Part shown: positions 971 to 32,461 of the stretch, one piece after another
Numbering within the stretch: position 1 is the stretch's first letter
Layout of the letters: every line of letters begins with the position of its first letter
Assembly: GCA_030456445.1 (NCBI GenBank)
Contig: JAKDNM010000003.1
Span: forward strand, 4,981-68,980
Direction of reading: 5' to 3'
From: Hyphomicrobiales bacterium
GTDB taxonomy: Bacteria > Pseudomonadota > Alphaproteobacteria > Rhizobiales > Rhizobiaceae
Length of the DNA stretch: 64,000 bases
Made by a program: the position numbers and the translations under genes
The notes under the pieces: model-generated
Database searches by the model: none
What the model saw: only the letters and a program-made list of their open reading frames with translations
Told to the model about the DNA's origin: nothing

Positions 971-1002
971 TCCTCAATAGTATTAATAAATACCAATTAG
1001 AA
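971..1002. promoter_or_regulatory. Tandem operator pair (TACYnATnRGTA family)
   Basis: TCCTCAATAGTA 971-982 and TACCAATTAGAA 991-1002, 20 bp apart, in an AT-rich patch before the first island gene. Confidence 0.6.
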
Positions 1003-1025
1003 TTGATGCGCCGATCGATGGAGGC

Positions 1026-2690
1026 ATGATGAGGATTTTCGAGGCGGTGGCCGAGGCGCTCGCCGCGGAGCAGATACCGACGATCTTCGGCGTGATGGGC
1101 GACGGCAATATGTCCCTGTGGTCGACCATTGTAGCCCGCAATTCGGCACAGATGATTTCCGCGCGTAACGAAGCCGGCGCGGTCGCGATGGCGGACGGCT
1201 TCTTTCGCGCGACGGGAGATGTTGGCGTCGCGACAGTCACCTGCGGGCCCGGTCTGACGCAGATCGGCACGTCTTTGATGGCGGCGGCGCGCAACCGCTC
1301 CGCTATCGTCGTCATCTGCGGCGAGATTCCCCCAGGGGCGGTAAACAAGCTGCAATCGATGGATCAGCGGCGCTTCGTCGAGGCGTGTTGCGCGCGCTAT
1401 GTATCCATCACCGGGTCGCCCGATCTCGCTCGTGAACTTGTCCAGGCCTTCTATCTGGCCCGGCTGGAATCCTGTCCTGTCGTCCTCAACCTTCCCAACG
1501 ACATTCAGGAGCGTGTCCTTGAAGGCGACTGGCGCTACCTGCCGGCCGCGGATTTCCTGCCCGAACAGACACCTGCCGCATGTGAGAAGGATATAGAGGC
1601 ACTGGCGGACGCGCTCTCCAGTGCCCGCCGGCCCCTCCTCATTGCGGGCAAGGGCGCGCGTCTTTCCGGGGCGGCGGGCGAGGTGGTTTCCCTGGCGCAA
1701 CGCGTCGGCGCTCTCCTGGGGACATCCCTCCAGGCGAAGGGTATGTTCTCCGATGAAGACTGGTCGCTTGGAATCGTCGGCGGCTACTCCTGTGCCGCGA
1801 CGGAGGAATTGTGCCGCCAGGCCGATCTCGTCATCGGTATCGGGGCAGAGATCGGTCACTATACGAGTTGGGGCGGGACGTTGTTTCCGCAAGCGACGGT
1901 GATGCGGATAGATGTGGCTGCGCCGTCGACGGACATACAGGCTGCCGCCGGTCGGCATGTGCGAGCAGATGCCTGCACGACGCTTGCGCGAGTCAACCGG
2001 GAGTTGGAGCACAGACAGGTGCGTGCCGAGGGTTTCCGTAGTGCCCTGACGCGCGGGACGATGGCGCTCATGCCCGAGCCGTTGCCGGAGGCGGCGGACG
2101 GCATCGATCCGCGCACGCTGGCAAGGGCATTGGGCCCGCTCATGTCCGAGAACGCCATGCTTACCTGCGGGGTCGGGCATTTCCAGGGTTTCGTCGCCAC
2201 CTATACCCGTCTCCGGCCGGGAACCCAGGTTGAATTCTCCAGCCAGTTCGGCGCTGTCGGGCAGACGCTCCCGATCGCCATCGGCATTGGTGCCGCGCAT
2301 CCGGGGCGCCCCCATCTGGTGATCGAAGGCGACGGCAGCCTCATGATGAACATGCAGGAACTCGACACCGCCGCGCGTTGCCGACAGCCGATGGTTCTCC
2401 TGGTCTGGAACGATCGCGGCTATGGCGCAGAGGCACAGCGCCTTCCGCTCAAGGGCTTTTCGCCCGCTCCCGCGCAATGGGAGACACCGGATTTCGGCGC
2501 CTTGGCGCGCGCCGTAGGAGGAGATGGCGTGATGCTGCACCATCTCGATGATCTCGAGGATGCCGTGCGGCGGGGGTTTGCCGCCGGAGGACTGTTCGTC
2601 ATCGACGCTCGCGTTTCTCCCACGGAAACGAGCGACAGTTATCGCAAGCTCTATATGGGCCAGCCCAACTTCGCGCCGCTTACGGCCTGA
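1026..2690 (+). CDS. Thiamine pyrophosphate-dependent enzyme (acetolactate synthase/decarboxylase/lyase superfamily)
   Basis: ARNEAGAVAMADG catalytic Glu region, TCGPG motif, TPP motif EGDGSLMM...VWND; RBS GGAGG before ATG. Confidence 0.9.
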   Translation: MMRIFEAVAEALAAEQIPTIFGVMGDGNMSLWSTIVARNSAQMISARNEAGAVAMADGFFRATGDVGVATVTCGPGLTQIGTSLMAAARNRSAIVVICGEIPPGAVNKLQSMDQRRFVEACCARYVSITGSPDLARELVQAFYLARLESCPVVLNLPNDIQERVLEGDWRYLPAADFLPEQTPAACEKDIEALADALSSARRPLLIAGKGARLSGAAGEVVSLAQRVGALLGTSLQAKGMFSDEDWSLGIVGGYSCAATEELCRQADLVIGIGAEIGHYTSWGGTLFPQATVMRIDVAAPSTDIQAAAGRHVRADACTTLARVNRELEHRQVRAEGFRSALTRGTMALMPEPLPEAADGIDPRTLARALGPLMSENAMLTCGVGHFQGFVATYTRLRPGTQVEFSSQFGAVGQTLPIAIGIGAAHPGRPHLVIEGDGSLMMNMQELDTAARCRQPMVLLVWNDRGYGAEAQRLPLKGFSPAPAQWETPDFGALARAVGGDGVMLHHLDDLEDAVRRGFAAGGLFVIDARVSPTETSDSYRKLYMGQPNFAPLTA

Positions 2691-2723
2691 CCGCGCTTAC
2701 GCTCGCTCGAAAGCGGCTATTGA

Positions 2724-2755
2724 TTCCGATTGGTAGTTTGAGATACTGAATGGAA
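2724..2755. promoter_or_regulatory. Tandem operator pair (TACYnATnRGTA family)
   Basis: TTCCGATTGGTA 2724-2735 and TACTGAATGGAA 2744-2755, 20 bp apart. Confidence 0.65.
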
Positions 2756-2807
2756 TATATTGCACATCCCGCTGGATGCGCTTCATTCTGGTGAGACCAT
2801 CGCTACA

Positions 2808-4985
2808 ATGCCTTCAGTTTCCGCAACCGAACGGACGAATTCCCCCGCGACTTATGGCGAGGCCGGGCTCGCACGACTACTTTCGCCGGCCTCGATCGCG
2901 ATCATCGGAGCTTCGGACCGCTCACGCTGGTCGACGACGATCGTACAGAATCTCGATAGCTGCGGTTACCGGGGCAGGCTCTCCCTAATCAACCCGCGCG
3001 GTGGGATGGTGCATGGCCGCCAAGCGCTATCGTCCTGCGCCGAGGTCGAAGGCGGCATCGACATGGGCGTCGTACTGGTGCCCGGCGAAGCCGTGCCCGG
3101 CGTCGTGGCCGATCTCGCCGATGCCGGCGCGCGTTCGGCCATGATCCTCACATCGGGCTTCGCCGAAACCGGCGAAGATGGCGCCCGACGGCAGATGCAA
3201 GTGCTTGAATTGGCCCGCTCGCGTAATCTCAGGCTTCTTGGCCCCAACAGTCTCGGTTACCTCAACTTCGCAGACAGGGTCTGGGCCTGGGCGACGCCGA
3301 TCAAGGCTCCTTCTCGCAGCGAGGGTGTCGGGATCCTGTCGCAGAGCGGAGCAACCGCCCTATTCATGGCCAATCTCGCTTATGAGCAGGATATCGGCTT
3401 GAGCCATGTGATCGCCACCGGCAATGAGGCCGACACCGGTATCACCGACTTTCTTGATCATCTGATCGACATGCCGTCCGTGCGCTCGCTCGCTCTTTTC
3501 ATCGAGACTGTCCGCGACCCAGAAGGTTTCATCCGTGCGGCGGAAAAGGCGTTGCGCATGGCCAAGCCGATTGTCGTCCTGAAAGTCGGCGCCAGCGAGG
3601 TGACGGCGCGTTCGGCCGAGGCCCATACCGGCGCACTGGTCGGCGACGATCGCGTCTTCGACGGCATCTGCCGCCAGTACGGCATTATCCGCGTCGGTGC
3701 GATCGAAGAATTGCTGGCCACCGCCGACATTGCCGCTCGAACGGGCGTATTGCGTCCAGGCGGCATTGCCGTGCTGTCGAACTCCGGCGGTATCTGCGAA
3801 ATAGCTGCCGACCGGGCGGAAGAACACGGCATAGCATTGCCGGAATTGTCGGAAGCGGCCGAAGCGACGCTTCGCGAGCTCATTCCGGGCTATGGTACGC
3901 CGCATAATCCGCTTGACCTGACCGGCGGCATAGATCCGGCTAATTGCGAACGGATCGTGCGTGTGCTGGGCCAGGAGGGAGTTTATTCCGCGATCCTTTG
4001 TCCCTATTATCCGGTGCCGGCGCGAGAGGACCAGATCAGCGAAAGGCTGACGGCGCTGCACCATGGGATCGCGCGCGGCATGGCCGGCAATGATGTGCCC
4101 GGGTTGCTGGTCAGTTACACGAGCACTCATGTGACCGACCTGACAAGGGAGATCGTGGCGCGGGATGCGCTTCCCTACCACGCCTGCGGCCTGGATCGCG
4201 CCGTCGCCGCCCTGGCCGGCATAATGCGCTGGTCGGAACGTCAGCGAAACCCGCCCTCTATTCCGTCGGCCGCTGCGGCCATACATCCCTCGCGGGAAGG
4301 AGCAAGGCCAGGGACGGAGCACGAGGCATTGTCATTCCTGGCGTCCTTCGGGGTTCCGGTAGTCCCGGCGCGTCTCGTGACCACGGCCGCCGATGCTGCC
4401 GCGGCAGCCTTGGAGATGGACGGTGCGGTCGCGGTCAAGATTGCGTCGCCGGATATCGCCCATAAAAGCGACATCGGCGGCGTGATCCTCAACGTCGAGG
4501 GCCGTGCGGCGGTGGAGCAGGCATTCCTTCGTGTGGTGGAAGCGGCCCGCCGACACAAGCCTGGTGCCCGCATCGATGGCGCGGTCGTCTCGCCGATGCG
4601 CCAGGGCGGCCTGGAGCTTTTTGTCGGCTGCACGCGCGATCCGCAATGGGGACCCGTCCTGGCGGTTGGCCTTGGCGGCATATGGGTGGAAATCCTCAAG
4701 GATGTCTCGCTGCGGCTGCTGCCCGTCGATGGGAGGGAGGTCAGGCGGATGCTGAACGAGTTGCGTGGAGCCGGGCTGCTTGCCGGGCAGCGGGGCGTTC
4801 CAGGCGCGGATCAGGACGCCGTCGCGGAAGCGATCGTGCGCATAGGAGATGCGGCCGCGGCATGCGGCTCCGATCTACGTGCGCTCGATGTCAATCCGCT
4901 ATGGGTTCGGGGCAGCCGGGTGGAGGCGCTGGATGCGCTGTTCGACTGGCAGCCGGAGAAGGTCGAATCCGGCGCTGAGCGCTAA
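2808..4985 (+). CDS. ADP-forming acyl-CoA synthetase (acetate-CoA ligase family, CoA-binding + ATP-grasp)
   Basis: IIGAS CoA-binding start, LLGPNSLG, SQSG, phospho-His AHTGAL, NPLDLTG, C-terminal ATP-grasp HKSDIGGV; ATG 2808 preferred to TTG 2760. Confidence 0.9.
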   Translation: MPSVSATERTNSPATYGEAGLARLLSPASIAIIGASDRSRWSTTIVQNLDSCGYRGRLSLINPRGGMVHGRQALSSCAEVEGGIDMGVVLVPGEAVPGVVADLADAGARSAMILTSGFAETGEDGARRQMQVLELARSRNLRLLGPNSLGYLNFADRVWAWATPIKAPSRSEGVGILSQSGATALFMANLAYEQDIGLSHVIATGNEADTGITDFLDHLIDMPSVRSLALFIETVRDPEGFIRAAEKALRMAKPIVVLKVGASEVTARSAEAHTGALVGDDRVFDGICRQYGIIRVGAIEELLATADIAARTGVLRPGGIAVLSNSGGICEIAADRAEEHGIALPELSEAAEATLRELIPGYGTPHNPLDLTGGIDPANCERIVRVLGQEGVYSAILCPYYPVPAREDQISERLTALHHGIARGMAGNDVPGLLVSYTSTHVTDLTREIVARDALPYHACGLDRAVAALAGIMRWSERQRNPPSIPSAAAAIHPSREGARPGTEHEALSFLASFGVPVVPARLVTTAADAAAAALEMDGAVAVKIASPDIAHKSDIGGVILNVEGRAAVEQAFLRVVEAARRHKPGARIDGAVVSPMRQGGLELFVGCTRDPQWGPVLAVGLGGIWVEILKDVSLRLLPVDGREVRRMLNELRGAGLLAGQRGVPGADQDAVAEAIVRIGDAAAACGSDLRALDVNPLWVRGSRVEALDALFDWQPEKVESGAER

Positions 4986-5019
4986 AATCCCCGCGCGAGA
5001 ATCGGTTCGAGGAGAAATC

Positions 5020-6171
5020 ATGTCATTGAACGGTAAGGGCGCTGTCACCGGTATCGGAGAGACGCAATATATGCGGGGCTCGCCGAAGAGCGCGTTCAGG
5101 CTCCAGATCGAGGCTTCGCTCAAGGCGATCGAGGACGCCGGTCTGACGCCGAAGGACATAGACGGCATTATCCCGATTGGCATTACCGGTGCGCCGGCGG
5201 AAGCTTTCGCCACCAATTTCGGCATAGAGGATTTGCGCTTTTCGGCTGTGGCGCCCCTCGGCGGAGCGAGCGGGATAGCCTCCGTCCAGGCGGCGGTCGC
5301 GGCGATCGCGGCCGGCATTTGCAACCACGTCCTTATCCCGTCCGGCCGCAACGTCACCTCGGGTGCGCGCGCTGGCGTGCGCATTCACCAGATGCCGCAG
5401 TTTCATCTGGTGACCGAGTTCGAATATCCGCTTGGGGCCATCGCGCCCGCGCAGCTCTATGCGCCGATGGCGCGGCGCCATATGGAACTCTACGGAACCA
5501 GCAGCCGGCAGTTCGCCGAGGTTGCAGTCGCGATGCGCGAGCATGCCGTGATGCACGGCAACGCGGTCATGAAAAAGCCGATCACCATAGAAGACCATCA
5601 GAATTCGCGGATGATCGCCGATCCGTTCCGGCTGCTCGATTGCAGCCTGGAAAGCGACGGCGGAGCGGCGCTGGTGATAAGCGCGGCCGAGCGCGTGCGC
5701 GACATGCGCCAGCCCGGCGTCGTCATAGCCGGGATAGCCGAAGGGCACCCCGACTCGCCAAGCTCGATCACGCAGCGGCCGGACATGACCAGGCTCGGCA
5801 TTGCCAAGGCCGCGCCGCGTGCATTCGCGATGGCGGGCGTATCGCCCGCGGAAATCCAGGTGGCCGAGATCTACGACTGCTTTACCTACATCGTGATCTG
5901 CCAGCTCGAGGACATGGGCTTCTGCAAGAAGGGCGAGGGCGGCGCCTTCGTCGAAAACGGGAGGCTCCGGCTCGGCGGCGGGCTTCCCACAAACACGCAT
6001 GGAGGTCTCCTGTCGCAGGCTCACATGCTCGGCATGAATCACGTCGTCGAACTGGTGCGCCAACTCCGCGGACAGGGAGGCGCGACGCAAGTCGAGGGCG
6101 CCGAGATCGGCCTGGCCACCGGCTATGGCGACCTGGGCGACGGCGCAATGGTCATCATGCGGCGCGCATAG
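5020..6171 (+). CDS. Thiolase-fold protein lacking catalytic Cys (Ltp2/SCP-x-like, probable aldolase)
   Basis: GIGET start, PLGGASG where thiolases have Cys, YDCFT, NTHGGLLS; RBS GGAG before ATG 5020; followed by DUF35 gene. Confidence 0.85.
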   Translation: MSLNGKGAVTGIGETQYMRGSPKSAFRLQIEASLKAIEDAGLTPKDIDGIIPIGITGAPAEAFATNFGIEDLRFSAVAPLGGASGIASVQAAVAAIAAGICNHVLIPSGRNVTSGARAGVRIHQMPQFHLVTEFEYPLGAIAPAQLYAPMARRHMELYGTSSRQFAEVAVAMREHAVMHGNAVMKKPITIEDHQNSRMIADPFRLLDCSLESDGGAALVISAAERVRDMRQPGVVIAGIAEGHPDSPSSITQRPDMTRLGIAKAAPRAFAMAGVSPAEIQVAEIYDCFTYIVICQLEDMGFCKKGEGGAFVENGRLRLGGGLPTNTHGGLLSQAHMLGMNHVVELVRQLRGQGGATQVEGAEIGLATGYGDLGDGAMVIMRRA

Positions 6172-6180
6172 GAGGACGAC

Positions 6181-6588
6181 ATGGCCACGACCGACAAGCC
6201 CCTTCCGCACGAAACAGAAGACAGCCAGCCATATTGGGCCAAGGCGAAGGGCGGTGTGCTGGCGATCCAGCGCTGCGCCGATTGCGGCAGGCTACGCCAT
6301 TATCCTCGTCTCGTCTGCGACAATTGCCATTCGCTAGAGGCCGATTGGATCGATGCCAGCGGGCGCGCCGTGCTGCATTCCTGGACTGTCGCGCACCATG
6401 CCTTCCATCCGGGCTTTGCAGGCGATGTTCCTTACGTCCTCGCCACGGTGGAACTGGAGGAAGGTCCGCGCGCGCTTGGCATTCTCGATTGCCCGGCGGA
6501 CGCCGGACTGAAGCCCGGGATGGCGGTCACGGCCCGGTTCGAGCAACGCGCCGACGGTGCGAGCGAGCTTCATTTCGCTCCGGCCTGA
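6181..6588 (+). CDS. Zn-ribbon/OB-fold DUF35 protein
   Basis: CADCG...CDNCHS zinc ribbon, PYVLATVELEEG OB-fold, adjacent to thiolase-like gene. Confidence 0.9.
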   Translation: MATTDKPLPHETEDSQPYWAKAKGGVLAIQRCADCGRLRHYPRLVCDNCHSLEADWIDASGRAVLHSWTVAHHAFHPGFAGDVPYVLATVELEEGPRALGILDCPADAGLKPGMAVTARFEQRADGASELHFAPA

Positions 6589-6594
6589 CAGGCT

Positions 6595-6660
6595 ATCATA
6601 TTGTTTTACGCAATTCCGGATGGAAAACCGGTTCCCGTTCTTCCTGGAATTGCTCTAAAC
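6595..6660 (-). repeat. Rhizobiales intergenic palindromic repeat (RIME-like)
   Basis: Reverse complement GTTTAGAGCAATTCCAGGAAGAACGGGAACCGGTTTTCCATCCGGAATTGCGTAAAACAATATGAT closely matches 54503-54584. Confidence 0.8.
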
Positions 6661-6686
6661 GAATCCCACGAGGGAGTACGACAGCG

Positions 6687-7820: not shown

Positions 7821-7829
7821 GAGGGCGGC

Positions 7830-8594: not shown

Positions 8595-8656
8595 AACCGA
8601 TTGATACCTTGCCGAATGCCTTTTTATCACACAGAATAAACTTGTACTTGTCAGTA
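8595..8656. promoter_or_regulatory. Operator sites (TACYnATnRGTA family)
   Basis: AACCGATTGATA 8595-8606 and TACTTGTCAGTA 8645-8656 upstream of dctP1. Confidence 0.6.
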
Positions 8657-9794: not shown

Positions 9795-9813
9795 GTATGC
9801 AATTGCCGACCCC

Positions 9814-9859
9814 GAGCATCGGACCGGAGATGGATTCCGTTTTCGGTCCGATGCCGCTC
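9814..9859 (+). repeat. Hairpin variant of the RIME-like repeat family
   Basis: 11-bp stem GCATCGGACCG (9816-9826)/CGGTCCGATGC (9844-9854), same GAGCA...CCG-TTTT...TGC layout as 6595 and 54503. Confidence 0.55.
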
Positions 9860-10104: not shown

Positions 10105-10136
10105 TACCCATAAGAATGGCGATATACCGATTGGTA
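10105..10136. promoter_or_regulatory. Tandem operator pair (TACYnATnRGTA family)
   Basis: TACCCATAAGAA 10105-10116 and TACCGATTGGTA 10125-10136, 20 bp apart. Confidence 0.7.
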
Positions 10137-16662: not shown

Positions 16663-16713
16663 TGGTCCTTGCGTCACCCGCTTCGGCTGGAGCGGATCAC
16701 ACATATACGGAGA

Positions 16714-17889: not shown

Positions 17890-17945
17890 AATGGTCGTGC
17901 GCACTGGTTCAATTCCGACCAGTGCTATAAGCCGGTAGCATTGGA

Positions 17946-17957
17946 TACCAATCGGCT
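17946..17957. promoter_or_regulatory. Operator site before tetR (possible autoregulation)
   Basis: TACCAATCGGCT, 2 mismatches to TACYnATnRGTA. Confidence 0.5.
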
Positions 17958-17970
17958 TGAGGACATACTT

Positions 17971-18600
17971 ATGACACTCGACAATGACGAACACCGGATG
18001 GGCATCCGCGATGAGGTCGCGGCGCTCAAGAGGGCCCGGACCATCGCGGCTGCAGTGGAGCTGTTTTACGAAAACGGCTACGAGAATACGACGCTCGATG
18101 CGGTCGCCGAAAGGCTGGGGGTGACCAAGCCGTTCATTTACGCGCATTTCCACTCGAAATCACAATTGCTCGCGGAGATATGCTCGCGTGGCATCGCCGC
18201 CTCGCTGGAGGCGATGGACAGCGTGATCCCAATGCAGGCGTCTCCGACTGAAAAGCTGCGAGTGCTGGGGCAGCGCTTCGTGACGGCCGTGCTCGAAAGC
18301 CAGATGCACATCGCCATCTTCTCCCGCGAAGAAAAGAATCTTGCGCCTGACGATTTCGTTCGAATCAACGACATGCGCCGGGATTTCGACAAGAAACTCA
18401 CAGCGCTTCTGCGCGAGGGCAGGGATAATGGCGAATTCTCGCTCAACGACGCGCATGTCGCCGCGCTCTCGATCGGCGGGATGGTGAGTTGGGCCTATGT
18501 CTGGTTCCGCCCGGCAGGCCGCTTGAAGGTGGAGCAGGTCGCCGGGGAAATGTCCCGCCTGATCCTGCATATGGTGAATGCGAAAGCGGCAAAGTCCTGA
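17971..18600 (+). CDS. TetR/AcrR family transcriptional regulator
   Basis: AAVELFYENGYENTTLDAVAERLGVTKPFIYAHF HTH; RBS GAGGA before ATG 17971. Confidence 0.95.
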   Translation: MTLDNDEHRMGIRDEVAALKRARTIAAAVELFYENGYENTTLDAVAERLGVTKPFIYAHFHSKSQLLAEICSRGIAASLEAMDSVIPMQASPTEKLRVLGQRFVTAVLESQMHIAIFSREEKNLAPDDFVRINDMRRDFDKKLTALLREGRDNGEFSLNDAHVAALSIGGMVSWAYVWFRPAGRLKVEQVAGEMSRLILHMVNAKAAKS

Positions 18601-18633
18601 AGGGATCCGCCGCGGGCTGAACAGGAAGACAAG

Positions 18634-19815
18634 ATGGCAGAGCCGTTGGCGACCGAAAGGTGCGGGCCACTCGAAGGGATAAGGGTCCTGGATCTGTCGA
18701 CCGTCGTTCTCGGCCCGATGACGGGACAATATCTTGGCGACATGGGCGCCGACGTCATCAAGGTCGAAGCCCCCGACGGCGACATCACACGTTCCATCGG
18801 GCCGCGCCGCTCCGAACGGATGGGCGCCCTGTTTCTTGCCAACAACCGCAACAAGCGAAGCATCGTACTCGACTTGAAGGTGGCCGCCGACCGGCAGGCG
18901 CTCGACCGCCTTGTCGAGAAGAGCGACGTGGTGCTGCATTCGATCCGCAGTTCCGCGGCCGAAAGGCTCGGCCTGTCTCACGAACGGCTTTCTTCCCTGA
19001 ACCCGACATTGATCTATTGCCATTTGCTGGGCTTTTCGGATCGCGGGCCCTATGCCGGAAACCCGGCCTATGACGACATCGTCCAGTCTCTATCGGGACT
19101 TGCTATGCTGCAGAAGATTGCGGCGGGCGAACCGCGTTACGTGCCCTCGATCATCGCCGACAAGATAACGGCGGTGCACGCCGCCTACGCGATCGCGCTT
19201 GGCCTTTTCCACCGTGCCAGGACGGGCCGGGGCCAGAAGGTTTCCGTGCCGATGCTGGAAACCATGGTGGCGTTTAACTCGGCGGAGCATCTGGGAGGCT
19301 GCATCTTCGAGCCAGCCGAGGGTGCGATGGGCTACGAGCCCATCCGTCACGGCATGCGTCGCCCTTTTCAGACCCGTGACGGGTTCATCTGCTTCCTGCC
19401 TTACAACGATGCGAACTGGCGTCGCTTCCTCATGATCGCTGAACGGACGGATCTGCTCGCCGATCAGCGGTTCTCGACCCAGGTCGGGCGGCAGGCGAAC
19501 CTCGCGCTGATCTGGAAGGAAGTAGCCGAAATATTGCGGCTGCGCAGCACGGCGGAATGGATGGGCCTCCTGGAAGGTTCCGACATTCCTCACGCCGTCG
19601 TGAATGATCTCGAGGATTTGCTGGACGATCCGCATCTGGAAGCAACGGGTTTCTGGGAGATGCGGACCCATCCGACGGAAGGCTTGATGCGGCTGCCCGC
19701 CAACCCGCTGCAATTTTCCGATTCGCCCGCGTCGATCCGCCGGCTTCCGCCGAGGCTCGGAGAGCATGGTGCGGAAATCCTGGAAGAGTTCGGGCTTGCG
19801 CGTCCCGCCGCGTGA
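18634..19815 (+). CDS. CaiB/BaiF family III CoA-transferase
   Basis: IRVLDLS, NRNKRS, AYDD, IADKITA catalytic Asp. Confidence 0.9.
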   Translation: MAEPLATERCGPLEGIRVLDLSTVVLGPMTGQYLGDMGADVIKVEAPDGDITRSIGPRRSERMGALFLANNRNKRSIVLDLKVAADRQALDRLVEKSDVVLHSIRSSAAERLGLSHERLSSLNPTLIYCHLLGFSDRGPYAGNPAYDDIVQSLSGLAMLQKIAAGEPRYVPSIIADKITAVHAAYAIALGLFHRARTGRGQKVSVPMLETMVAFNSAEHLGGCIFEPAEGAMGYEPIRHGMRRPFQTRDGFICFLPYNDANWRRFLMIAERTDLLADQRFSTQVGRQANLALIWKEVAEILRLRSTAEWMGLLEGSDIPHAVVNDLEDLLDDPHLEATGFWEMRTHPTEGLMRLPANPLQFSDSPASIRRLPPRLGEHGAEILEEFGLARPAA

Positions 19816-19835: not shown

Positions 19836-19888
19836 TACTGATAAGAAGCAGTTGCTACTATAGGATAGTTGTTGTATACGCATGAGTA
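19836..19888. promoter_or_regulatory. Operator sites (TACYnATnRGTA family)
   Basis: TACTGATAAGAA 19836-19847 and TACGCATGAGTA 19877-19888, weak third copy at 19856. Confidence 0.65.
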
Positions 19889-19922: not shown

Positions 19923-20975
19923 ATGAATGCGATTTTTAGAAGCTATGCCAAGGCTGTCGCCGCCGCGGCCATGACGGGCATCGTTCTCGGTACGACGATG
20001 CCGGGCGCCTTGGCCCAGACTATCCTGAAATATTCGCCCTGGTTGCCGCCGGGCTATGTCCTGAACGGCCCGGTCTTGAAGCCCTGGATGGCCGAGATCG
20101 AGAAAGTGACCGAGGGCCGCGTCAAGGTCGAATGGCTGCCCAAGGCCGTTGGCTCCGCCGCCGCCCAGTTCGACGTCATTCGCGACGGCCTCGCTGATAT
20201 GAGCATAATCCTGCCCGGCTATACGCCGGGACGCTTTCCTCTGATGGAAATCGGCGAACTGCCACTGCTCGCCGACGATCCGGCGGTGCTCTCGCCCGTT
20301 TTCGAGCGGATCTACGAGAAGCATCTGGAGAAGCTGGAGCCGTTCAAAGGCACCCGTCTGCTCACGATATGGGCCAGCACACCGACGCAGATCGTGACCA
20401 GCAAGGGGATCGTTCAGGATGTGAGCGAACTGGCGGGCCTCAAAATGCGCGCGCCGAGCAATACGGCGGTGGAGGAGATGGAAAAGCTCGGCATAGTGCC
20501 CGTGCAGAAGCCGGTCTCGGAGATGTACGAGCTTGCCTCGTCGGGCATCGTCGACGGCACCTTCTTTCCGCTCAGCCCGATCGTCGACTGGAAGGTCGAC
20601 AAGATTCTCAAATACGTGACCAAGGTCCCGGGCGGGATGGGCCAGTCCGTCCTGGCCATTCTCGTCAATCAGGCGAAATGGGATTCCATCGACGAGAAGG
20701 ACCGACAGGCCATCATGGCCATTTCGGGCGAGAAGCTGTCGCGGCAGGTGGGCGAGGAATATGCCAAGGGCGAGATCGCGGCGCGTGAGACGCTTCTTGC
20801 CGAAGGCGTGAAGATCGAGGACGCGTCTCCTCAACTGCGCCAGCAGATCAAGGACGCGCTGGCGCCCGTAGATCAGGCCTGGATCGAAAAGGCGAAGTCG
20901 AAAGGCCTTGACGACGCGGCGGCCGTTCTCGACGACTTCCGCGCGCAGCTCGATGCCGGATCGGACGGAAAATAG
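19923..20975 (+). CDS. dctP: TRAP transporter substrate-binding protein
   Basis: Signal peptide, LKYSPWLPP, GLKMRAP; RBS GGAGG; followed by dctQ and dctM. Confidence 0.95.
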   Translation: MNAIFRSYAKAVAAAAMTGIVLGTTMPGALAQTILKYSPWLPPGYVLNGPVLKPWMAEIEKVTEGRVKVEWLPKAVGSAAAQFDVIRDGLADMSIILPGYTPGRFPLMEIGELPLLADDPAVLSPVFERIYEKHLEKLEPFKGTRLLTIWASTPTQIVTSKGIVQDVSELAGLKMRAPSNTAVEEMEKLGIVPVQKPVSEMYELASSGIVDGTFFPLSPIVDWKVDKILKYVTKVPGGMGQSVLAILVNQAKWDSIDEKDRQAIMAISGEKLSRQVGEEYAKGEIAARETLLAEGVKIEDASPQLRQQIKDALAPVDQAWIEKAKSKGLDDAAAVLDDFRAQLDAGSDGK

Positions 20976-21002
20976 GCTGCTGGCCGGCCGAAGCGGAGGA
21001 CA

Positions 21003-21506
21003 GTGAGCATGCTCGACCGTATCGAGAGCGCCATCAGCGCGATCGCAGGAATTATTCTTCTTGGCCTCGCCCTTCTCACGCTCGGCGATGTGCTTGGCCG
21101 CAACTTTCTCAATCATCCGCTTCCCGGAGCTACCGAGCTGACCGAATTGGGGTTGGTCGGTATAACTTTCCTGCTTTACCCCCAGGTCGCGCTCCGCCGG
21201 CATCATATCGTGATCGACCTTCTGGACGACTTTACGGCCGGATGGTTCAAGGTTCTCCAGAACGTGCTGGCGGGTCTTCTCGGCGGGCTCTTCTTCGCCG
21301 CGTTGGCATGGCGGATGACGGTGCAAGGGCAACGGATTGCCTCTTACGGCGATGTCACGCCCTATCTGCAGTTGCCGCTTTCGCCCGCCTATTATTTCAT
21401 GGCTTTCCTGTCGGCCCTCACCGCCTTGGCCTTCTTCCTCACCATTTTCATCGCCCCGCGCGAAGAAGCGGGTGAAGGGCACGCTCCGACCATGGGTCTA
21501 GAATAA
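21003..21506 (+). CDS. dctQ: TRAP transporter small permease
   Basis: DVLGRNFLNHPLPGATELT, HIVIDLL, 4 TM segments. Confidence 0.9.
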   Translation: MSMLDRIESAISAIAGIILLGLALLTLGDVLGRNFLNHPLPGATELTELGLVGITFLLYPQVALRRHHIVIDLLDDFTAGWFKVLQNVLAGLLGGLFFAALAWRMTVQGQRIASYGDVTPYLQLPLSPAYYFMAFLSALTALAFFLTIFIAPREEAGEGHAPTMGLE

Positions 21507-21507
21507 G

Positions 21508-22797
21508 ATGCTCGTCGCTTCTGTCGGTTTTTTGTGCGCCTTTGCGCTGATCTTCCTGCGTGTGCCGGTGGCGATTGCGCTGGCGGTCGTCGGCTTCGGC
21601 GGATTCGCCATCGTCAACGGTTTCACGCCTGCATTGAGCATGATCACGCTAGTGACCAGCGGATCCACCATGTCCTACCCGCTGGCGGTCATCCCCCTGT
21701 TCATTCTCATGGGCAATTTCGTGGCAGGCGGAGGCATATCCGCACAGCTTTATCGCGCAGCACAGGCATTCATCGGCCATTGGCGCGGCGGCCTTGCGCT
21801 GGCAACCATCGTCTCCTGCGGCGGCTTTGCCGCGGTATGCGGATCGAGCGTCGCGACCGCGGTCACGATGGGTAAGGTATGCATCCCGTCCATGCGGCGG
21901 TACGGCTATTCCGAAAGCCTGAGCACAGCGACCGTGGCGGCCGGCGGTACCTTGGGCATTCTCATTCCGCCCAGCGTCATCATGGTGGTCTACGGCGTCC
22001 AGACGCAAACCCATATAGGCAAGCTTTTTGCCGCCGGCCTGCTTCCCGGGCTCATCGGCATCATCGGCTATTCGCTGGCGATCCGCTGGACGGTATTCCG
22101 GAAGCCTCAATCCGCTCCGGCCGCCGAGCGTTCGACGCGGGCGGAGAAGATGAGCGCGTTGATGAATGTCTGGCCGGTCGCCGCATTGTTCGTGCTCGTT
22201 CTTGGCGGGATCTATACAGGCTACTTCACCGCCACCGAGGCGGGCGGCATCGGCGCGATCGGCGCGCTGGCATTCGCGCTCTTCCGCGGTCTTAGCCTGA
22301 CTGCCCTGCTGGATATCCTCAAGGATTCCGTCCAGACGACCGCAGTCTTGTTCGCCCTCATCCTGGGCGCGACGATCTTTGGCGAATTCATCAATCTGAC
22401 GGGAGCCGATCGTGCCGTGCTGGCCCTTGTCAGCAATTCCAGTTTCCCGCCCTGGCTCGTGGTCCTCATCATCATGCTGATCTATGTGCTGCTCGGCTGC
22501 GTGCTGGACAGCCTGGCGATGATATTGCTGACGCTGCCGATGTTCTTTCCGATCATTATCGGTCTCGGGTACGATCCGGTCTGGTTCGGTATCTTCGTCG
22601 TCATGCTGGTCGAACTCGGCCTGATCACGCCGCCGATCGGAATGAACCTGTTCGTCCTGAGTTCCGTCGCGCCGGACATCAGGCTGAAGACGATTATCAG
22701 CGGCATCCTTCCTTTCATCGTGTCGGACATTTGCCGCATCCTCCTGGTGGCCTTTTTCCCTATTATCGCGCTCGTGCTCCCAAACCTCTTTTTCTAG
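21508..22797 (+). CDS. dctM: TRAP transporter large permease
   Basis: IPLFILMG, GGTLGILIPPS, ITPPIGMNLFV. Confidence 0.95.
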   Translation: MLVASVGFLCAFALIFLRVPVAIALAVVGFGGFAIVNGFTPALSMITLVTSGSTMSYPLAVIPLFILMGNFVAGGGISAQLYRAAQAFIGHWRGGLALATIVSCGGFAAVCGSSVATAVTMGKVCIPSMRRYGYSESLSTATVAAGGTLGILIPPSVIMVVYGVQTQTHIGKLFAAGLLPGLIGIIGYSLAIRWTVFRKPQSAPAAERSTRAEKMSALMNVWPVAALFVLVLGGIYTGYFTATEAGGIGAIGALAFALFRGLSLTALLDILKDSVQTTAVLFALILGATIFGEFINLTGADRAVLALVSNSSFPPWLVVLIIMLIYVLLGCVLDSLAMILLTLPMFFPIIIGLGYDPVWFGIFVVMLVELGLITPPIGMNLFVLSSVAPDIRLKTIISGILPFIVSDICRILLVAFFPIIALVLPNLFF

Positions 22798-22860
22798 AGC
22801 CTGGGACTGGAAGCCTCCGCAAGTGCCAGGTGCGCTTGTAAATTCCGTGCGGCTGTGTGA

Positions 22861-22892
22861 TACTGATGAGTAATTTTAAATTCCTATCAGTT
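22861..22892. promoter_or_regulatory. Tandem operator pair (TACYnATnRGTA family)
   Basis: TACTGATGAGTA 22861-22872 and TTCCTATCAGTT 22881-22892, 20 bp apart. Confidence 0.7.
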
Positions 22893-22929: not shown

Positions 22930-22962
22930 ATGAGACCAAGTGCGGAAGGTCGGAAATGGTGA
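22930..22962 (+). other. Possible 10-codon leader ORF (MRPSAEGRKW) coupled to the FMO start
   Basis: GGAGG at 22919-22923, ATG 22930, TGA 22960-22962 overlapping GTG 22959 of the FMO frame. Confidence 0.35.
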
Positions 22963-24323
22963 AGCGGTATGCCGTCATCGGCGCTGGCGCCGGCGGACTA
23001 TGCGCAGCAAAGAACCTGCTGTCCCAAGGCATCGAGCCTGCCATCTTCGAGATCGGCAGCCGCATCGGCGGTCTGTGGGTCTACAATAATGACAGCGGAC
23101 GCAGCCCCGCCTATCGCAGCCTGCACATCAATTCGGAAGCCAAGGTCAGCTCGTATATCGATTTTCCGTTTCTGCCTGACACGCCGCTTTATCCGGATAC
23201 GGCGCAGATGGAACGTTATTTCCTCGACTACGCCGAACATTTCGACCTCATCGACCGCATTCGCTTCAACAGCGAAGTCAAGTCGATTGAGCCGGTCGGC
23301 GAGCGATACCGCGTCACAACCGCAAGCGGGCAGGAGGAAGAGTTCGACGGCGTCGTCGTCGCCTCCGGACACCAAAGCATTCCGCGGCATCCGCCGCAGA
23401 TAGAGGGGTTCACGGGGGAGTATCTTCACTCCCACGGCTACAGGGAGCCGGAACCGTTTGCCGGAAAGAGGGTGCTCGTCATAGGTCCCGGCAATAGCGG
23501 CGTCGATGTCGCCGCCGACATATGCACCGTAACGGAGAAGACGTTCCTCGCGGCGCGCTCGCCTGTGTTGATCATGCCCCGATTGATGTTTGGGGTCCCA
23601 CAATCCCGCGTTCTCGTGAAGCTCGAAAAACCCTGGGTTCCCTGGAGCTTGCGGATATGGATGCGCATCATGCTCACGCGCGTCTTTCACGGACGGATGG
23701 AGCAATGGGGTTTTCGGACGCCGCACACGCGCACGCACCCCATCAGCCATCCGACGCTGATTTCCCATATCGCGTGGGAACGCATCAAGGTGAAGCCGGG
23801 GATCGAGCGCGCGGAAGGCAACGCCGTCTTCTTCACCGACGGCTCGCAGGAAACGGTTGACAGCATCATCGCCGCGACGGGCTACCTCACGGATCTGCCT
23901 TTCCTGCCGCAGGGAACCTCCCCTCTCGATGGCACGCGCCTCAGCCTCTACAACCGCGTCGTCCATCCGTCGTTGCCCAACGTTTTCTTCATCGGCTTCT
24001 TCGACGCATCGGGAGGAAGCAACATCCGCATGATGGACGATCAGGCCGAATATCTGTCGACCATTGCATCGGGCAAGATCACACTGCCGCCACATGATGA
24101 GATGCTGCGGGCCATCCAGGCGGATCATGATTTCCAGGAACGCCAGTTTCCCGACCGCCCGCGCTACGGGCTTGAGCTCGATCCTTTCCGGTACCGCAAA
24201 GCGCTCGCCCGCGATTATGCCCGCAGCGGCGTGGCCAGGCCTCGCGCGATACCTGCAACAACGCGCGCCTCTCGCCAGTCTGCACCAGAGTCAGAGGAAA
24301 AGCGCTTCGCGACACCGCAATGA
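22956..24323 (+). CDS. Class B flavin-containing monooxygenase (FMO type)
   Basis: VIGAGAGG FAD motif, FTGEYLHSHGY FMO fingerprint, VIGPGNSG NADPH motif, IIAATGY. Confidence 0.92.
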   Translation: MVKRYAVIGAGAGGLCAAKNLLSQGIEPAIFEIGSRIGGLWVYNNDSGRSPAYRSLHINSEAKVSSYIDFPFLPDTPLYPDTAQMERYFLDYAEHFDLIDRIRFNSEVKSIEPVGERYRVTTASGQEEEFDGVVVASGHQSIPRHPPQIEGFTGEYLHSHGYREPEPFAGKRVLVIGPGNSGVDVAADICTVTEKTFLAARSPVLIMPRLMFGVPQSRVLVKLEKPWVPWSLRIWMRIMLTRVFHGRMEQWGFRTPHTRTHPISHPTLISHIAWERIKVKPGIERAEGNAVFFTDGSQETVDSIIAATGYLTDLPFLPQGTSPLDGTRLSLYNRVVHPSLPNVFFIGFFDASGGSNIRMMDDQAEYLSTIASGKITLPPHDEMLRAIQADHDFQERQFPDRPRYGLELDPFRYRKALARDYARSGVARPRAIPATTRASRQSAPESEEKRFATPQ

Positions 24324-24370
24324 ACCGGCCCGGGTGATATCCGGCCCGGTCGCCTGGCTGGGAGGCAAGC

Positions 24371-25432
24371 ATGAGAGCGATCGTCATTCGTGAACCGGGC
24401 CCGCCGGAGCAGTCGCTGCTTCTGGAGACGGTTCCCGATCCTGTGCCGGGACCAGGGCAGGTGGTGATCCGTGTCGAAGCCTGCGGAGTCTGTGCACATG
24501 ACGTGGCCAAGCGAAGCGGCATTCTGCGCCGCGGAATTGAGATGCCGCTCATTCCGGGCCATGAGGTTGCCGGCACGATCGCCGGCATCGGCGAGGATGT
24601 TCGCGGCTACCAGATCGGCCAGCGCGTGGCGACGACGCAACGCAGCCACATCTGCCTCGAATGCCGTTACTGCCGCGCAGGGCGCGAACCGTTGTGCGAC
24701 GAGGCCGTGTTCATGGGCGACCGGGGGCTCAACGGCGGCTATGCCGAATATGTCGCCACGGACGCAAGCACCATCGCCGCAATACCCGACGGAGTGTCGT
24801 TCGCCCAGGCTGCCATTGCGGCCTGTGCGATCGGCACGGTCTATCACGCAGCCTTTCCGGTCGGTCGTATCCGGCCGGGCGAGACTGTTTTGGTCACCGG
24901 CGCGTCGGGCGGGCTCGGGATCCACGCGCTCCAGATGGGTCGCCTGGGCGGCGCCCGCGTGATTGCCGCCACCTCTTCGCCGGGCGCCGCGGACATGCTG
25001 CGTAGCCAGGGCGCGGACGTGGTGATTGCGACGGAACGCGGCGGGGATTTCTCCGCCGCCATCCTGGCGGAGACGTCCGGCGCTGGCGCCGACATCGTCA
25101 TCGACACGGTGGGTACGCCTGTTTTCAACGCGGTCCGGAAATCGCTGGCCAAGGCCGGGCGCTGGGTCATGGTCGGCCAGGTCACCGGAACTTTCGTGCA
25201 GTTCAATCCCGCGCAACTCTTTTTGCGCGACATTTCAATGCTGAGCGCTACGAGCACGACGCGAAGCGAACTGCAACGCTGTCTCTCGCTTATCGCGCGC
25301 GATCTGATCCGGCCCGTCGTCTCCGACATCCTTCCGCTGGAGGCCGCATGCAAGGCTCATGCGCTGATGGAGGAAGGAGCGCTAGCCGGCCGCATCGTGC
25401 TGGCTCCGCATGCATCCGGTGTGGCCGCTTAG
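24371..25432 (+). CDS. Zn-dependent alcohol dehydrogenase (MDR family)
   Basis: CGVCAHD, GHEVAG, CLECRYCRAGREPLC structural Zn, VLVTGASGGLG. Confidence 0.92.
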   Translation: MRAIVIREPGPPEQSLLLETVPDPVPGPGQVVIRVEACGVCAHDVAKRSGILRRGIEMPLIPGHEVAGTIAGIGEDVRGYQIGQRVATTQRSHICLECRYCRAGREPLCDEAVFMGDRGLNGGYAEYVATDASTIAAIPDGVSFAQAAIAACAIGTVYHAAFPVGRIRPGETVLVTGASGGLGIHALQMGRLGGARVIAATSSPGAADMLRSQGADVVIATERGGDFSAAILAETSGAGADIVIDTVGTPVFNAVRKSLAKAGRWVMVGQVTGTFVQFNPAQLFLRDISMLSATSTTRSELQRCLSLIARDLIRPVVSDILPLEAACKAHALMEEGALAGRIVLAPHASGVAA

Positions 25433-25443
25433 AGCCAATGAGA

Positions 25444-25509
25444 TCGCATATGTGAAAATTCATTCGCAAATGTGAGTATCTCAGCCAAACAATCTCTTAC
25501 TTATGAGTA
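25444..25509. promoter_or_regulatory. Composite control region: two TCGCAwATGTGA boxes plus one TACYnATnRGTA site
   Basis: TCGCATATGTGA 25444-25455, TCGCAAATGTGA 25464-25475 (20-bp period), TACTTATGAGTA 25498-25509. Confidence 0.55.
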
Positions 25510-32458: not shown

Positions 32459-32461
32459 GAA

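Follow-up and report, generated by a model that had tools for sequence, protein, structure and literature searches.

Which regulator reads the palindrome that recurs between the genes of the first 25.5 kb of this DNA, and what does it control there? The window, i.e., the whole stretch analysed, covers 64,000 nt of the forward strand from a Hyphomicrobiales bacterium (Rhizobiaceae; GCA_030456445.1, JAKDNM010000003.1, positions 4,981-68,980). The core motif is a 12-bp palindrome, TACY-N4-RGTA, with a longer 14-bp form, ATACY-N4-RGTAT. The first-pass annotation had listed 14 sites in eight intergenic regions, each upstream of a likely operon start, under a consensus with a central AT. All 14 were present, nine with at most one mismatch and five (971, 2744, 8595, 17946, and 22881) with two, and all were located in eight gaps ahead of plus-strand genes. 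The central AT proved dispensable; in high-GC relatives, the centre is GC instead.

The window was scanned with TACYNATNRGTA. Three exact matches were found (10125, 22861, and 25498; 0.01 expected), and nine were found at up to one mismatch (0.61 expected), a number reached in none of 100 shuffles. All nine were intergenic and confined to 991-25509. The intergenic DNA of this acyl-CoA catabolic gene island (1700 bp, 44.9% AT) contained 3, 9, and 15 sites at 0, ≤1, and ≤2 mismatches, respectively, vs. about 0.002, 0.1, and 1.2-1.5 expected from AT-matched backgrounds, i.e., within-region permutations or a Markov-1 model, and the observed counts were reached in 0 of 2000 replicates. This comparison had been set beforehand as one that could refute the proposal, and enrichment was found (about 1.3 expected at ≤2 mismatches). 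Intergenic DNA past 25.6 kb (2242 bp) gave 0, 0, and 1 sites in the same classes. In agreement with the annotation, which saw no convincing copies past 25.5 kb, just isolated two-mismatch or low-scoring matches were detected there, at 35824, 38151, 51587, and 59120; a partner was looked for at two of these four, 38151 and 59120, and none was found.

It is hardly credible that chance or base composition in AT-rich promoters, or else a dispersed repeat, accounts for the matches. The window-wide excess in the two-mismatch class is modest (25 vs. 14.7 expected, a weak enrichment), as such a reading would have it. However, it was ruled out by the AT-matched tests, by the palindromic form and fixed spacing of the motif, and by sites that are kept at orthologous positions though their flanks diverge.

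Table 1. Candidate operator sites and the proposed repressor gene (positions in the window; mismatches to the 12-bp motif).
Feature	Sequence	Position	Strand	Mismatches	Context
Distal candidate operator	TCCTCAATAGTA	971..982		2	20 bp from 991; upstream of ThDP-enzyme gene 1026-2690
Proximal candidate operator	TACCAATTAGAA	991..1002		1	
Candidate operator	TTCCGATTGGTA	2724..2735		1	Overlaps -35-like TTGATT 2720-2725; upstream of operon 2760-8594
Candidate operator	TACTGAATGGAA	2744..2755		2	20 bp from 2724; overlaps -10-like GATACT 2742-2747
Site of the first-pass annotation	AACCGATTGATA	8595..8606		2	Out of phase with the conserved triplet; function doubtful
Weak site	TACCTTGCCGAA	8605..8616		4	Same position as TACGTTTCGGAA in L008 and TACCTTCCGGAA in L001
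Weak site	TATCACACAGAA	8625..8636		4	Same position as TATCCATCAGAA in L008
Strong site	TACTTGTCAGTA	8645..8656		1	Upstream of orphan TRAP binding-protein gene 8745-9794
Distal site	TACCCATAAGAA	10105..10116		1	First T is the final base of -35-like TTGCGT (10100-10105)
Proximal site	TACCGATTGGTA	10125..10136		0	Overlaps -10-like TATACC (10123-10128); upstream of main operon
Candidate autoregulatory site	TACCAATCGGCT	17946..17957		2	Immediately 5' of tetR ribosome-binding site GAGGA 17959-17963
Weak partner	TACTTATGACAC	17966..17977		3	20 bp downstream of 17946; spans tetR start codon
tetR, proposed repressor, 209 aa, TetR_N and TetR_C_24		17971..18600	+		
Site	TACTGATAAGAA	19836..19847		1	Opens triplet upstream of TRAP transporter operon 19923-22797
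Weak middle site	TACTATAGGATA	19856..19867		3	Counterpart in L008 (11877) and L001 (11884)
Site	TACGCATGAGTA	19877..19888		1	21 bp from 19856, 41 bp from 19836
Exact site	TACTGATGAGTA	22861..22872		0	Overlaps -10-like GATACT (22859-22864); upstream of genes 22956-25432
Partner site	TTCCTATCAGTT	22881..22892		2	20 bp downstream of 22861
Lone exact site	TACTTATGAGTA	25498..25509		0	123 bp upstream of gene at 25632

The genes behind the sites are listed with them in Table 1. The operon at 2760-8594 encodes an ADP-forming acyl-CoA synthetase, an SCPx-type thiolase, an NMO-like protein, and an enoyl-CoA hydratase. The main operon, 10185-17889, encodes an AMP-ligase, a cyclase-family hydrolase, a family III CoA-transferase, two thiolase-like proteins, a DUF35 protein, and an acyl-CoA dehydrogenase; in front of it, positions 10124-10137 (ATACCGATTGGTAT) form a perfect palindrome of 14 bp. 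The genes at 22956-25432 encode a flavin monooxygenase and a Zn alcohol dehydrogenase. The gene at 25632 heads a tightly packed plus-strand run ending at 37125, and the site at 25498 probably extends control to genes past 25.5 kb.

The earlier site list was corrected in part. In the DctP1 region, 8645 was retained, whereas 8595 was probably mis-registered: it overlaps 8605, and the conserved triplet is 8605/8625/8645, a 20-bp-phased array with two weak members whose positions are kept in orthologous regions. The other listed sites stood, but the list was incomplete, as the weak site 17966, covering the tetR ATG, and the middle site 19856 had been missed. Both are kept in Mesorhizobium sp. J18 and Propylenella, and 19836/19856/19877 becomes a 20/21-bp triplet once 19856 is counted. 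With 3-4 mismatches, several of the partner sites gain credence solely from where they lie and from being kept in orthologous regions.

The tetR gene is the sole regulator gene in 1-25.5 kb, and site 17946 precedes its ribosome-binding site; the annotation had noted one site in front of the gene. The product showed PF00440 (5.5e-17) and PF17932 (TetR_C_24, 1.3e-30) domains. Its AF2 model has nine helices (pLDDT 89), and all top Foldseek matches of the model were TetR regulators, which places it in the TetR family. The Foldseek top 50 included PfmR, AibR, KstR2, BkaR, and FadR, and also DarR and uncharacterised regulators; phmmer hits were 3vpr (3e-21), 5k7f (1.6e-16), KstR2 (5e-12), and FadR (3e-10). 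Its nearest relatives in sequence and predicted fold belong to the acyl-CoA-sensing TetR clade. In helix 3, T52-K53-x3-Y57-x-H59-x3-K63 matches T46-K47-Y51-H53-K57 of AibR: K53 and Y57 align with the base-contacting Lys47 and Tyr51, and T52, H59, and K63 with the backbone contacts T46, H53, and K57. Such residues occur widely among TetR regulators, and the match has low discriminating power.

It is very likely that TACY-N4-RGTA is the operator of this TetR, with one homodimer per palindrome and an autoregulated regulon across the cluster. The earlier assignment of the regulon to this protein is strongly supported at the sequence level: tetR is the lone regulator gene of the island, the base-contacting residues are conserved, and the homologues AibR, DarR, and PfmR recognise closely similar DNA in vitro or in crystals. 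In addition, 80 loci from other genomes were chosen solely for their TetR orthologue, and they contained 34 exact sites (about 1.3 expected). At ≤1 mismatch, just 8 of 107 matches fell within orthologous coding sequence; the remaining ones were located upstream of tetR (13 sites in 11 loci) and of orthologues of the AMP-ligase (~25 loci), both CoA-transferases (1 and 2), DctP1, DctP2, the SCPx thiolase, the acyl-CoA dehydrogenase, and the monooxygenase. Copies at several promoters, including that of the regulator itself, occur in the eight window regions and likewise in Mesorhizobium sp. J18, Propylenella, and a Lautropia MAG. The orthologue group is ~70% identical across Hyphomicrobiales, Acetobacteraceae, Sphingomonadales, Rhodobacterales, and the Lautropia MAG; the loci of the Falsiroseomonas group (66-67% identical) had neither the cluster nor the motif. 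A metagenome scan used the motif alone, i.e., two perfect sites 20 bp apart, with no TetR criterion. A TetR ORF was present in 36 of the 120 stretches recovered, and in ~25 the ORF started ~10-30 bp from the site.

The motif could also be read mainly by a regulator encoded elsewhere, e.g., a paralogous TetR with the same recognition helix, so that the island TetR is one of several. TetR paralogues at 50-60% identity adjoin the same motif in other clusters, two paralogues are present on one contig (L035 and L067), and distant TetR subfamilies use the same double site. Cross-regulation is possible because these paralogous TetRs use the same motif. As the principal reader, however, such a regulator is improbable: motif and orthologue co-occur tightly, including the autoregulatory pair on the regulator's own start codon in many genomes, and the island encodes no further regulator.

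The half-sites TAC(C/T) and (G/A)GTA, 4 bp apart, correspond to the operator type of AibR and DarR (TAC-N6-GTA). AibR of Myxococcus xanthus (PDB 5K7F, 5K7H, 5K7Z) is homologous to the window protein (E 1.6e-16, Foldseek TM about 0.76-0.85). The core of its operator, TACCGGTCGGTA / ACCTACCGGTCGGTAGGT, crystallised as TACCGATCGGTA, essentially equals the window motif; Lys47 contacts G12 and G13, and Tyr51 contacts T14 (PMC5389471). The window TetR retains the helix 3 residues with which AibR contacts bases (Lys and Tyr) and backbone (Thr, His, and Lys), and the W-x-Y...K/R loop motif that holds the acyl-CoA ligand of AibR is present too. In contrast, AibR acts at one 18-bp operator of a biosynthetic operon, whereas the window has eight promoter regions, paired sites, and catabolic genes. 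AibR also binds DNA only with isovaleryl-CoA bound (PMC5389471), it is 25-29% identical to the window TetR, and its His114 is not conserved.

DarR of mycobacteria and Rhodococcus (PDB 8SVA, 8SVD) has the operator ATACT-N4-AGTAT, with the same outer half-sites and 4-bp centre, and cAMP or c-di-AMP raises its DNA affinity (PMC10636190). Each operator is served by two dimers, and among the targets are the regulator's own gene and one of the acyl-CoA ligase type. However, it is ~20% identical to the window TetR, and its dimers sit on overlapping palindromes in one 20-bp site, touching via residues 116-125. Such a DarR/QacR-type dimer-of-dimers within one 20-28-bp operator was rejected for the window, where the palindromes are complete and 8-9 bp apart.

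In fold, PfmR (TTHB023, Thermus thermophilus, PDB 3VPR) matched best, and in sequence it ranked second (E 3e-21). It acts as a repressor of its own gene and of fatty-acid and phenylacetate genes, and its palindromes are of the (T/G)ACCG-N2-CGGT(A/C) type, with two sites in each of two promoters. PfmR binds sites such as CCTACCGACCGGTCGG (PMC7022988). Its optimal site CTGACCGATCGGTCAG has other outer bases, a fixed 20-bp phasing is not described for it, and its host is a thermophile with a different regulon.

In architecture, the regulon resembles the cluster-wide catabolic regulons of MbdR, KstR2, and PaaR, with operators at several promoters and at the regulator's own gene. In MbdR (Azoarcus sp. 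CIB) and KstR2 (Mycobacterium), a single TetR gene inside a catabolic cluster acts on palindromic operators at several promoters, including an internal one and its own, and these overlap -35, -10, or +1. Both are induced by the first CoA thioester of the pathway, which would also apply to the window. They differ from the window TetR in operator and pathway, i.e., ATAC-N10-GTAT and 3-methylbenzoate for MbdR, and AnCAAG-N2-CTTGnT and steroid rings C/D for KstR2, and similarity is lower (E 6e-7 and 5e-12, respectively).

The sites are spaced strictly. The four exact 20-bp pairs of the first-pass annotation (971/991, 2724/2744, 10105/10125, and 22861/22881) were confirmed; in these pairs and in the triplets, whole 12-bp palindromes are set 8-9 bp apart, with centres 20-21 bp from each other. 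In other genomes, partners were 20 bp away in 17 of 27 cases, 21 bp in 2, and 41 bp in 2, vs. 0-2 partners at any other offset of 6-80 bp. In 17 independent AMP-ligase promoters, gathered by position alone, the bases 20 bp upstream of the anchor were TACC..G...GGRA, plus TT at -25/-24. Invariant spacing of this kind, found in many genomes and in several promoter contexts, fits a cooperative binding of neighbouring dimers, roughly on one helix face.

Next to the sites, or overlapping with them, lie conserved TTGC-type and taTACY elements separated by a 17-bp spacer; for example, TTGTAA (22836-22841) is followed by a 17-bp spacer and the -10-like element at 22859. A strict E. coli-type sigma-70 scan called no promoter at any site, so promoter overlap is judged solely from TTG and TAnnnT-like elements that are conserved. 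At promoters of the main type, the distal site would begin on the final base of the TTGC-type -35 element, and the left half of the proximal site would be shared with the taTACY -10 element. Because the sites share these elements, bound repressor should exclude RNA polymerase.

This geometry also offers another explanation of the spacing. The same repressor may bind the paired sites independently with no dimer-dimer contacts, and the 20 bp would reflect the covering of -35/spacer and -10/+1 of a 17-bp-spacer promoter. Where promoters are of the commonest type, the distal site lies directly against the TTGC-type -35, and a taTACY -10 exactly 17 bp on has bases in common with the proximal site; this geometry by itself gives 20 bp. 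Independent binding deserves consideration but is unlikely, since the 20-bp distance also holds away from promoters, over the tetR ribosome-binding site and ATG (17946/17966), an arrangement kept in L008, L001, L002, and L060. The distance likewise holds at 22861/22881, with the second site downstream of the -10 element. Moreover, triplets occur at 0/20/41 bp, and weak sites with 2-4 mismatches hold their position, as expected if they rely on an adjacent dimer. As a tentative proposal, less likely than not, the 20/21/41-bp phasing could represent an array in which two or three TetR dimers stand side by side in helical phase and bind cooperatively, strong sites recruiting dimers onto weak ...GGAA sites. 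Such an array would be distinct from the overlapping QacR/DarR dimer-of-dimers and common to several otherwise unrelated TetR subfamilies, because the identical double site precedes their genes in metagenomes. Here, it would govern a widespread, biochemically uncharacterised alphaproteobacterial pathway.

Release of the TetR by an acyl-CoA is plausible by family. CoA thioesters release KstR2, PaaR, and FadR-type repressors. In MbdR, cluster-wide TetR repression is lifted by the first CoA thioester, 3-methylbenzoyl-CoA (PMC4424350). By pairwise alignment at 25-29% identity, five of six AibR CoA-contact positions are kept in kind: W169, Y171, K175, K131, and K132 align with W174, Y176, R180, R136, and R137, which are invariant in 18 orthologues, and Lys172 is replaced by V177. 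Homology does not tell in which direction the ligand acts, because AibR needs acyl-CoA to bind DNA and DarR binding rises with cyclic nucleotides. It is therefore conceivable, if rather improbable, that the TetR binds these sites with a ligand that acts inversely or is no acyl-CoA, i.e., a co-repressor like isovaleryl-CoA, a cyclic nucleotide, or the free acid substrate. AibR, with the most similar operator, and DarR are both precedents, and His114, central to the AibR switch, is Arg119 here. However, the targets are catabolic and transport genes, and intermediate-dependent repression would shut the pathway when substrate is present. The kept CoA-contact positions and the thioester-released relatives (KstR2, MbdR, PaaR, and FadR-type) also argue for release by an acyl-CoA.

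A circuit can be proposed on the observed enrichment, positions, spacing, cross-genome conservation, and homology to regulators with the same operator. A TetR homodimer would occupy each palindrome. At most target promoters, the palindromes come in twos or threes, with centres a constant 20 bp (now and then 21 bp) apart. A typical promoter has one strong and one weak site, the latter ending ...GGAA/AGAA, with adjacent dimers presumably side by side, and a further pair over the tetR ribosome-binding site and start codon would provide autoregulation. The sites would act in repression of the target operons. The regulon would comprise at least seven or eight transcription units, with two CoA ligases, two family III CoA-transferases, thiolase-like/DUF35 proteins, an acyl-CoA dehydrogenase, a hydratase, a ThDP enzyme, a flavin monooxygenase, an alcohol dehydrogenase, and a TRAP transporter with two binding proteins. 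Induction would be by a CoA thioester that the pathway itself generates; the likeliest candidate is the product of the AMP-ligase encoded first in the main operon.

The circuit is well supported as one of a familiar and fairly ordinary type, acting on an uncharacterised pathway. For a TetR orthologue group that is likewise uncharacterised, it supplies an operator and a regulon ready for testing, and the operator marks the bounds of a conserved catabolic gene set. The operator-promoter modules could act as reporters to find the pathway substrate, and the strict 20-bp phasing in many genomes and other TetR subfamilies makes a clean system for probing the cooperation of adjacent TetR dimers. None of the proteins checked, i.e., ten from 10185-19815 and the monooxygenase at 22956, reached a curated NCBIfam equivalog cut-off. 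The thiolase-like subunit of the pathway is 75-92% identical across orders.

The reading of this region as a catabolic cluster under its own local TetR, a proposed repressor with predicted palindromic operators at the cluster's promoters, holds up. The cluster is an island of approximately 25 kb, and its genes all lie on the plus strand. None of ten island proteins reached a curated NCBIfam cut-off, and the island pathway is therefore considered undescribed. No description of such a pathway emerged when the literature was searched for this combination of genes.

Coordinates of features in the window and of GC-centred operators at loci (L numbers) from other genomes
Feature	Position	Strand	Remark
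ThDP enzyme	1026-2690	+	
ADP-forming acyl-CoA synthetase, SCPx-type thiolase, NMO-like flavoprotein, enoyl-CoA hydratase	2760-8594	+	
Orphan TRAP binding protein (DctP1)	8745-9794	+	
-35-like TTGCGT	10100-10105		
-10-like TATACC	10123-10128		
AMP-ligase, cyclase-family hydrolase, family III CoA-transferase, two thiolase-like proteins, DUF35 protein, acyl-CoA dehydrogenase	10185-17889	+	
TetR	17971-18600	+	RBS GAGGA 7 nt upstream of ATG
Second CoA-transferase	ends at 19815	+	after TetR
DctPQM	19923-22797	+	
FMO-type monooxygenase, Zn alcohol dehydrogenase	22956-25432	+	
CMD-like protein, aldehyde dehydrogenase, 3-hydroxyisobutyrate-dehydrogenase-like protein, fused hydantoinase A/B, Liv-type ABC transporter	25632-37125	+	gene run
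1338-aa fused hydantoinase/oxoprolinase A+B, two IclR regulators, enoyl-CoA hydratase, B12-dependent acyl-CoA mutase (large and small subunits), family III CoA-transferase, MeaB	25632-43778	+	also in second catabolic block
GC-centred operators	L010 10799, L026 2438, L032 2467, L071 364, L074 8847, L080 9928		

The motif TACYNATNRGTA was matched exactly three times in the 64-kb window (10125, 22861, and 25498), against 0.01 expected. At up to one mismatch, nine matches were found against 0.61 expected, a number reached in none of 100 dinucleotide-preserving shuffles, and all nine fall inside 991-25509. The first-pass annotation had listed 14 sites in eight intergenic regions. All are present, i.e., nine at up to one mismatch and five at two, and by ORF listing and Pfam scans they occupy eight gaps preceding plus-strand genes. 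Because the two-mismatch class is modestly enriched window-wide (25 vs. 14.7 expected), those five need context. Enrichment over an AT-matched intergenic background, a comparison that the annotation had named as a possible refutation, was also found. Island intergenic DNA (1700 bp, 44.9% AT) contained 3, 9, and 15 sites at zero, up to one, and up to two mismatches. Within-region permutation and a first-order Markov model predict approximately 0.002, 0.1, and 1.2-1.5, and counts as high as those observed did not occur in any of 2000 replicates. Intergenic DNA past 25.6 kb (2242 bp) held 0, 0, and 1, respectively. Iterative PWM refinement from the nine best sites was abandoned because it drifted to generic, ATC-rich coding DNA; the analysis relied on mismatch counts and on statistics by position alone. 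The candidates 38151 and 59120, both without partner or supporting context, were rejected on inspection.

Some details of the proposed sites were revised. The site placed at 8595 is probably mis-registered, the conserved triplet before DctP1 being 8605/8625/8645. The list missed the weak partners at 17966, which includes the tetR start codon, and 19856. The core of the consensus is TACY-N4-RGTA. In genomes of approximately 62-74% GC, the centre of the operator has GC in place of AT (TACYnGCnRGTA), so the central AT is a dispensable lineage preference. At several sites the palindrome extends to 14 bp, e.g., ATACCGATTGGTAT at 10124-10137.

Homologues of the TetR numbered more than 1,200 at E<1e-20, and orthologues (approximately 60-80% identity) were found in Mesorhizobium, Propylenella, Roseomonas/Falsiroseomonas, Sphingomonadales, Rhodobiaceae, and a Lautropia MAG. 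By TetR protein alone, 80 genomic loci (1.35 Mb) were collected. Many of them keep the order AMP-ligase, cyclase, CoA-transferase, thlA, thlB, DUF35, (ACAD), TetR, (CoA-transferase 2, DctPQM, FMO). The loci contain 34 exact motif matches, against approximately 1.3 expected from composition. At up to one mismatch, 8 of 107 matches lie within orthologous coding sequence, and the remaining ones precede orthologues of the AMP-ligase (approximately 25 loci), CoA-transferase 1, DctP1, DctP2, SCPx thiolase, monooxygenase, dehydrogenase, and CoA-transferase 2. Upstream of tetR itself, 13 such sites were found in 11 loci. Site for site, the window layout recurs in the corresponding intergenic regions of L008 (Mesorhizobium sp. 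J18), L001 (Propylenella), and L004 (the Lautropia MAG): the AMP-ligase is preceded by a pair, DctP1 and DctP2 each by a triplet, and a further pair covers the RBS and ATG of tetR.

In the Roseomonas/Falsiroseomonas loci L016-L019 and L025 (TetR 66-67% identical), cluster and motif are both absent within 10 kb, and a conserved inverted repeat, CTGTATGGGCTATACAG, with opposite half-site order lies upstream of tetR. A paralogous TetR group (L058-L080; 50-60% identity) has the same motif near tetR, upstream or just downstream, and a different cluster, with AMP-ligase approximately 28-30%, ACAD approximately 28%, and ECH approximately 58% identical to those of the window. Two TetR paralogues, at L035 and L067, share one contig, so cross-talk is possible.

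The assignment of the motif to the TetR is strongly supported: the TetR is the sole regulator gene of the island, the motif travels with its orthologues, and the operators of its homologues are alike. The next regulators, two IclR genes at 37-39 kb, are part of another block. A PDB sequence search with the TetR returned 3dcf (uncharacterised), PfmR (3e-21), AibR (1.6e-16), KstR2, DarR, and FadR. The top Foldseek matches of its AF2 model (pLDDT 89) include PfmR, AibR, DarR, KstR2, BkaR, and FadR, with the uncharacterised 3him and 3dcf. In a literal literature search with six 12-mer variants, the AibR paper was the sole relevant match. The AibR operator is ACCTACCGGTCGGTAGGT, and the protein was crystallised on CCTACCGATCGGTAGG, where Lys47 contacts G12 and G13 and Tyr51 contacts T14 (PMC5389471). 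DarR binds ATACT-N4-AGTAT (PMC10636190), and PfmR sites include CCTACCGACCGGTCGG (PMC7022988). T52-K53-x3-Y57-x-H59-x3-K63 of the TetR aligns with T46, K47, Y51, H53, and K57 of AibR. Operators of this type were thus already known from homologues; the more interesting aspects are the strict 20-bp phasing and the highly conserved, undescribed pathway.

In a reverse test, metagenome contigs were scanned, without protein information, for pairs of perfect sites at 20-bp spacing. A TetR-profile ORF was found in 36 of 120 stretches with the double site, and in approximately 25 of the 120 a TetR ORF starts approximately 10-30 bp from it. The other stretches were mostly tandem repeats or AT-rich DNA. 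The TetRs belong to other subfamilies, i.e., without a Pfam C-terminal domain, with TetR_C_13, or with TetR_C_24 adjoining a DctP gene, so the double operator is a widespread TetR design. The double sites recur, immediately upstream of these TetR genes, in a few conserved sequence families (L081-L200; e.g., L178 13210, L165 5020, and L120 1447). The recognition helix is GISKPSLYKHFKSK in the TetRs that lack a Pfam C-terminal domain and ESTKMTLYRHFASK in those with TetR_C_13.

The 20-bp pair spacing, pointed out in the first-pass annotation, recurs elsewhere. With anchors at up to one mismatch and partners at up to two within 6-80 bp, 17 of 27 partners in the 80 loci are spaced by exactly 20 bp, two by 21 bp, two by 41 bp, and at most one by each other offset. 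When partners at up to three mismatches were oriented by the downstream gene, 18 were at -20 and 18 at +20, with at most four at other offsets. In 17 independent AMP-ligase promoters, collected by position alone, the bases 20 bp upstream of the anchor are T10 A13 C13 C15 ... G11 G13 R15 A15 (of 17). The distal site is a degenerate TACC-N4-GGRA, with TT at -25/-24 in 13-14 of 17. A typical module thus reads cTTGCa-TACCnnnnGGAA-N8-TACYnnnnRGTA. The first base of its distal site is the end of a TTG-type -35 element, followed after a 17-bp spacer by a taTACY -10-like hexamer sharing bases with the proximal site. Alphaproteobacterial promoters deviate from the E. coli consensus. Since a strict E. 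coli-type sigma-70 scan called a promoter at none of the sites, we only infer that operator and promoter overlap. Terminators were no commoner than in shuffles.

Promoter geometry alone is an insufficient explanation for the spacing, because 20 bp is also kept outside the -35/-10 layout, i.e., in the pair over the tetR RBS and ATG, at 22861/22881, whose second site follows the -10 element, and in the 0/20/41 triplets. Since 20 bp spans 1.9 helical turns and 41 bp approximately four, adjacent TetR dimers would sit on the same helix side, in line with the first-pass annotation. Cooperative recruitment onto weak sites would fit their positional conservation. The arrangement would be unlike the overlapping dimer-of-dimers of DarR and QacR.

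Characterised members of the clade sense CoA thioesters. The CoA contacts W169, Y171, K175, K131, and K132 of AibR align with W174, Y176, R180, R136, and R137 of the TetR, which are invariant in 18 orthologues; the TetR does not keep Lys172 of AibR or its switch residue, His114. MbdR, one TetR repressing four promoters of its own cluster, responds to 3-methylbenzoyl-CoA (PMC4424350). By analogy, the inducer would most likely be an early-pathway CoA thioester, e.g., the AMP-ligase product. The ligand effect could run in either direction, because AibR binds DNA only with its ligand bound and DNA binding of DarR is enhanced by cyclic nucleotides. Release by ligand would be sensible logic for a catabolic regulon.

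One exact site, at 25498, stands alone 123 bp ahead of the tightly packed gene run beginning at 25632, so control may extend past 25.5 kb. At up to one mismatch, no further motif sites were found in the rest of the window, and the second catabolic block has none inside. That block resembles mutase/hydantoinase clusters such as anaerobic indoleacetate genes.

A KstR2/steroid pathway link, suggested by some database names, was rejected: KstR2 has a different operator, and Pfam scans, which covered the genes as far as 48.7 kb, showed no IpdAB-type (family I) CoA-transferase. The window has two paralogous TRAP binding proteins (the second at 19923-20975) and a single DctQM pair. For both, the closest PDB entry is 4p56 (E ~1e-60), then 5i5p/5iga. 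These entries probably have mandelate and adipate-type acids as ligands and could give a clue to the kind of substrate. The thlB protein (14982-16160 in the window; L001-L064) is 75-92% identical across Alphaproteobacteria orders and the Lautropia MAG, and its operon neighbours merely 55-70%. The constraint on thlB is unusually strong for an enzyme without assigned function.

The window DNA is from a food-metagenome assembly. One food-metagenome run holds 97% of sampled words of 9800-12800 and no RNA runs contained them; an assembly is therefore probably all that is known of the source organism. On the minus strand, the ORF at 47813-48655 has the FAD-binding domain of molybdopterin dehydrogenases and is adjoined by ORFs at 48710-51097 and 51192-51692. 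The three may be parts of one gene set of the CO-dehydrogenase/xanthine-dehydrogenase type, which would have no relation to the operators.
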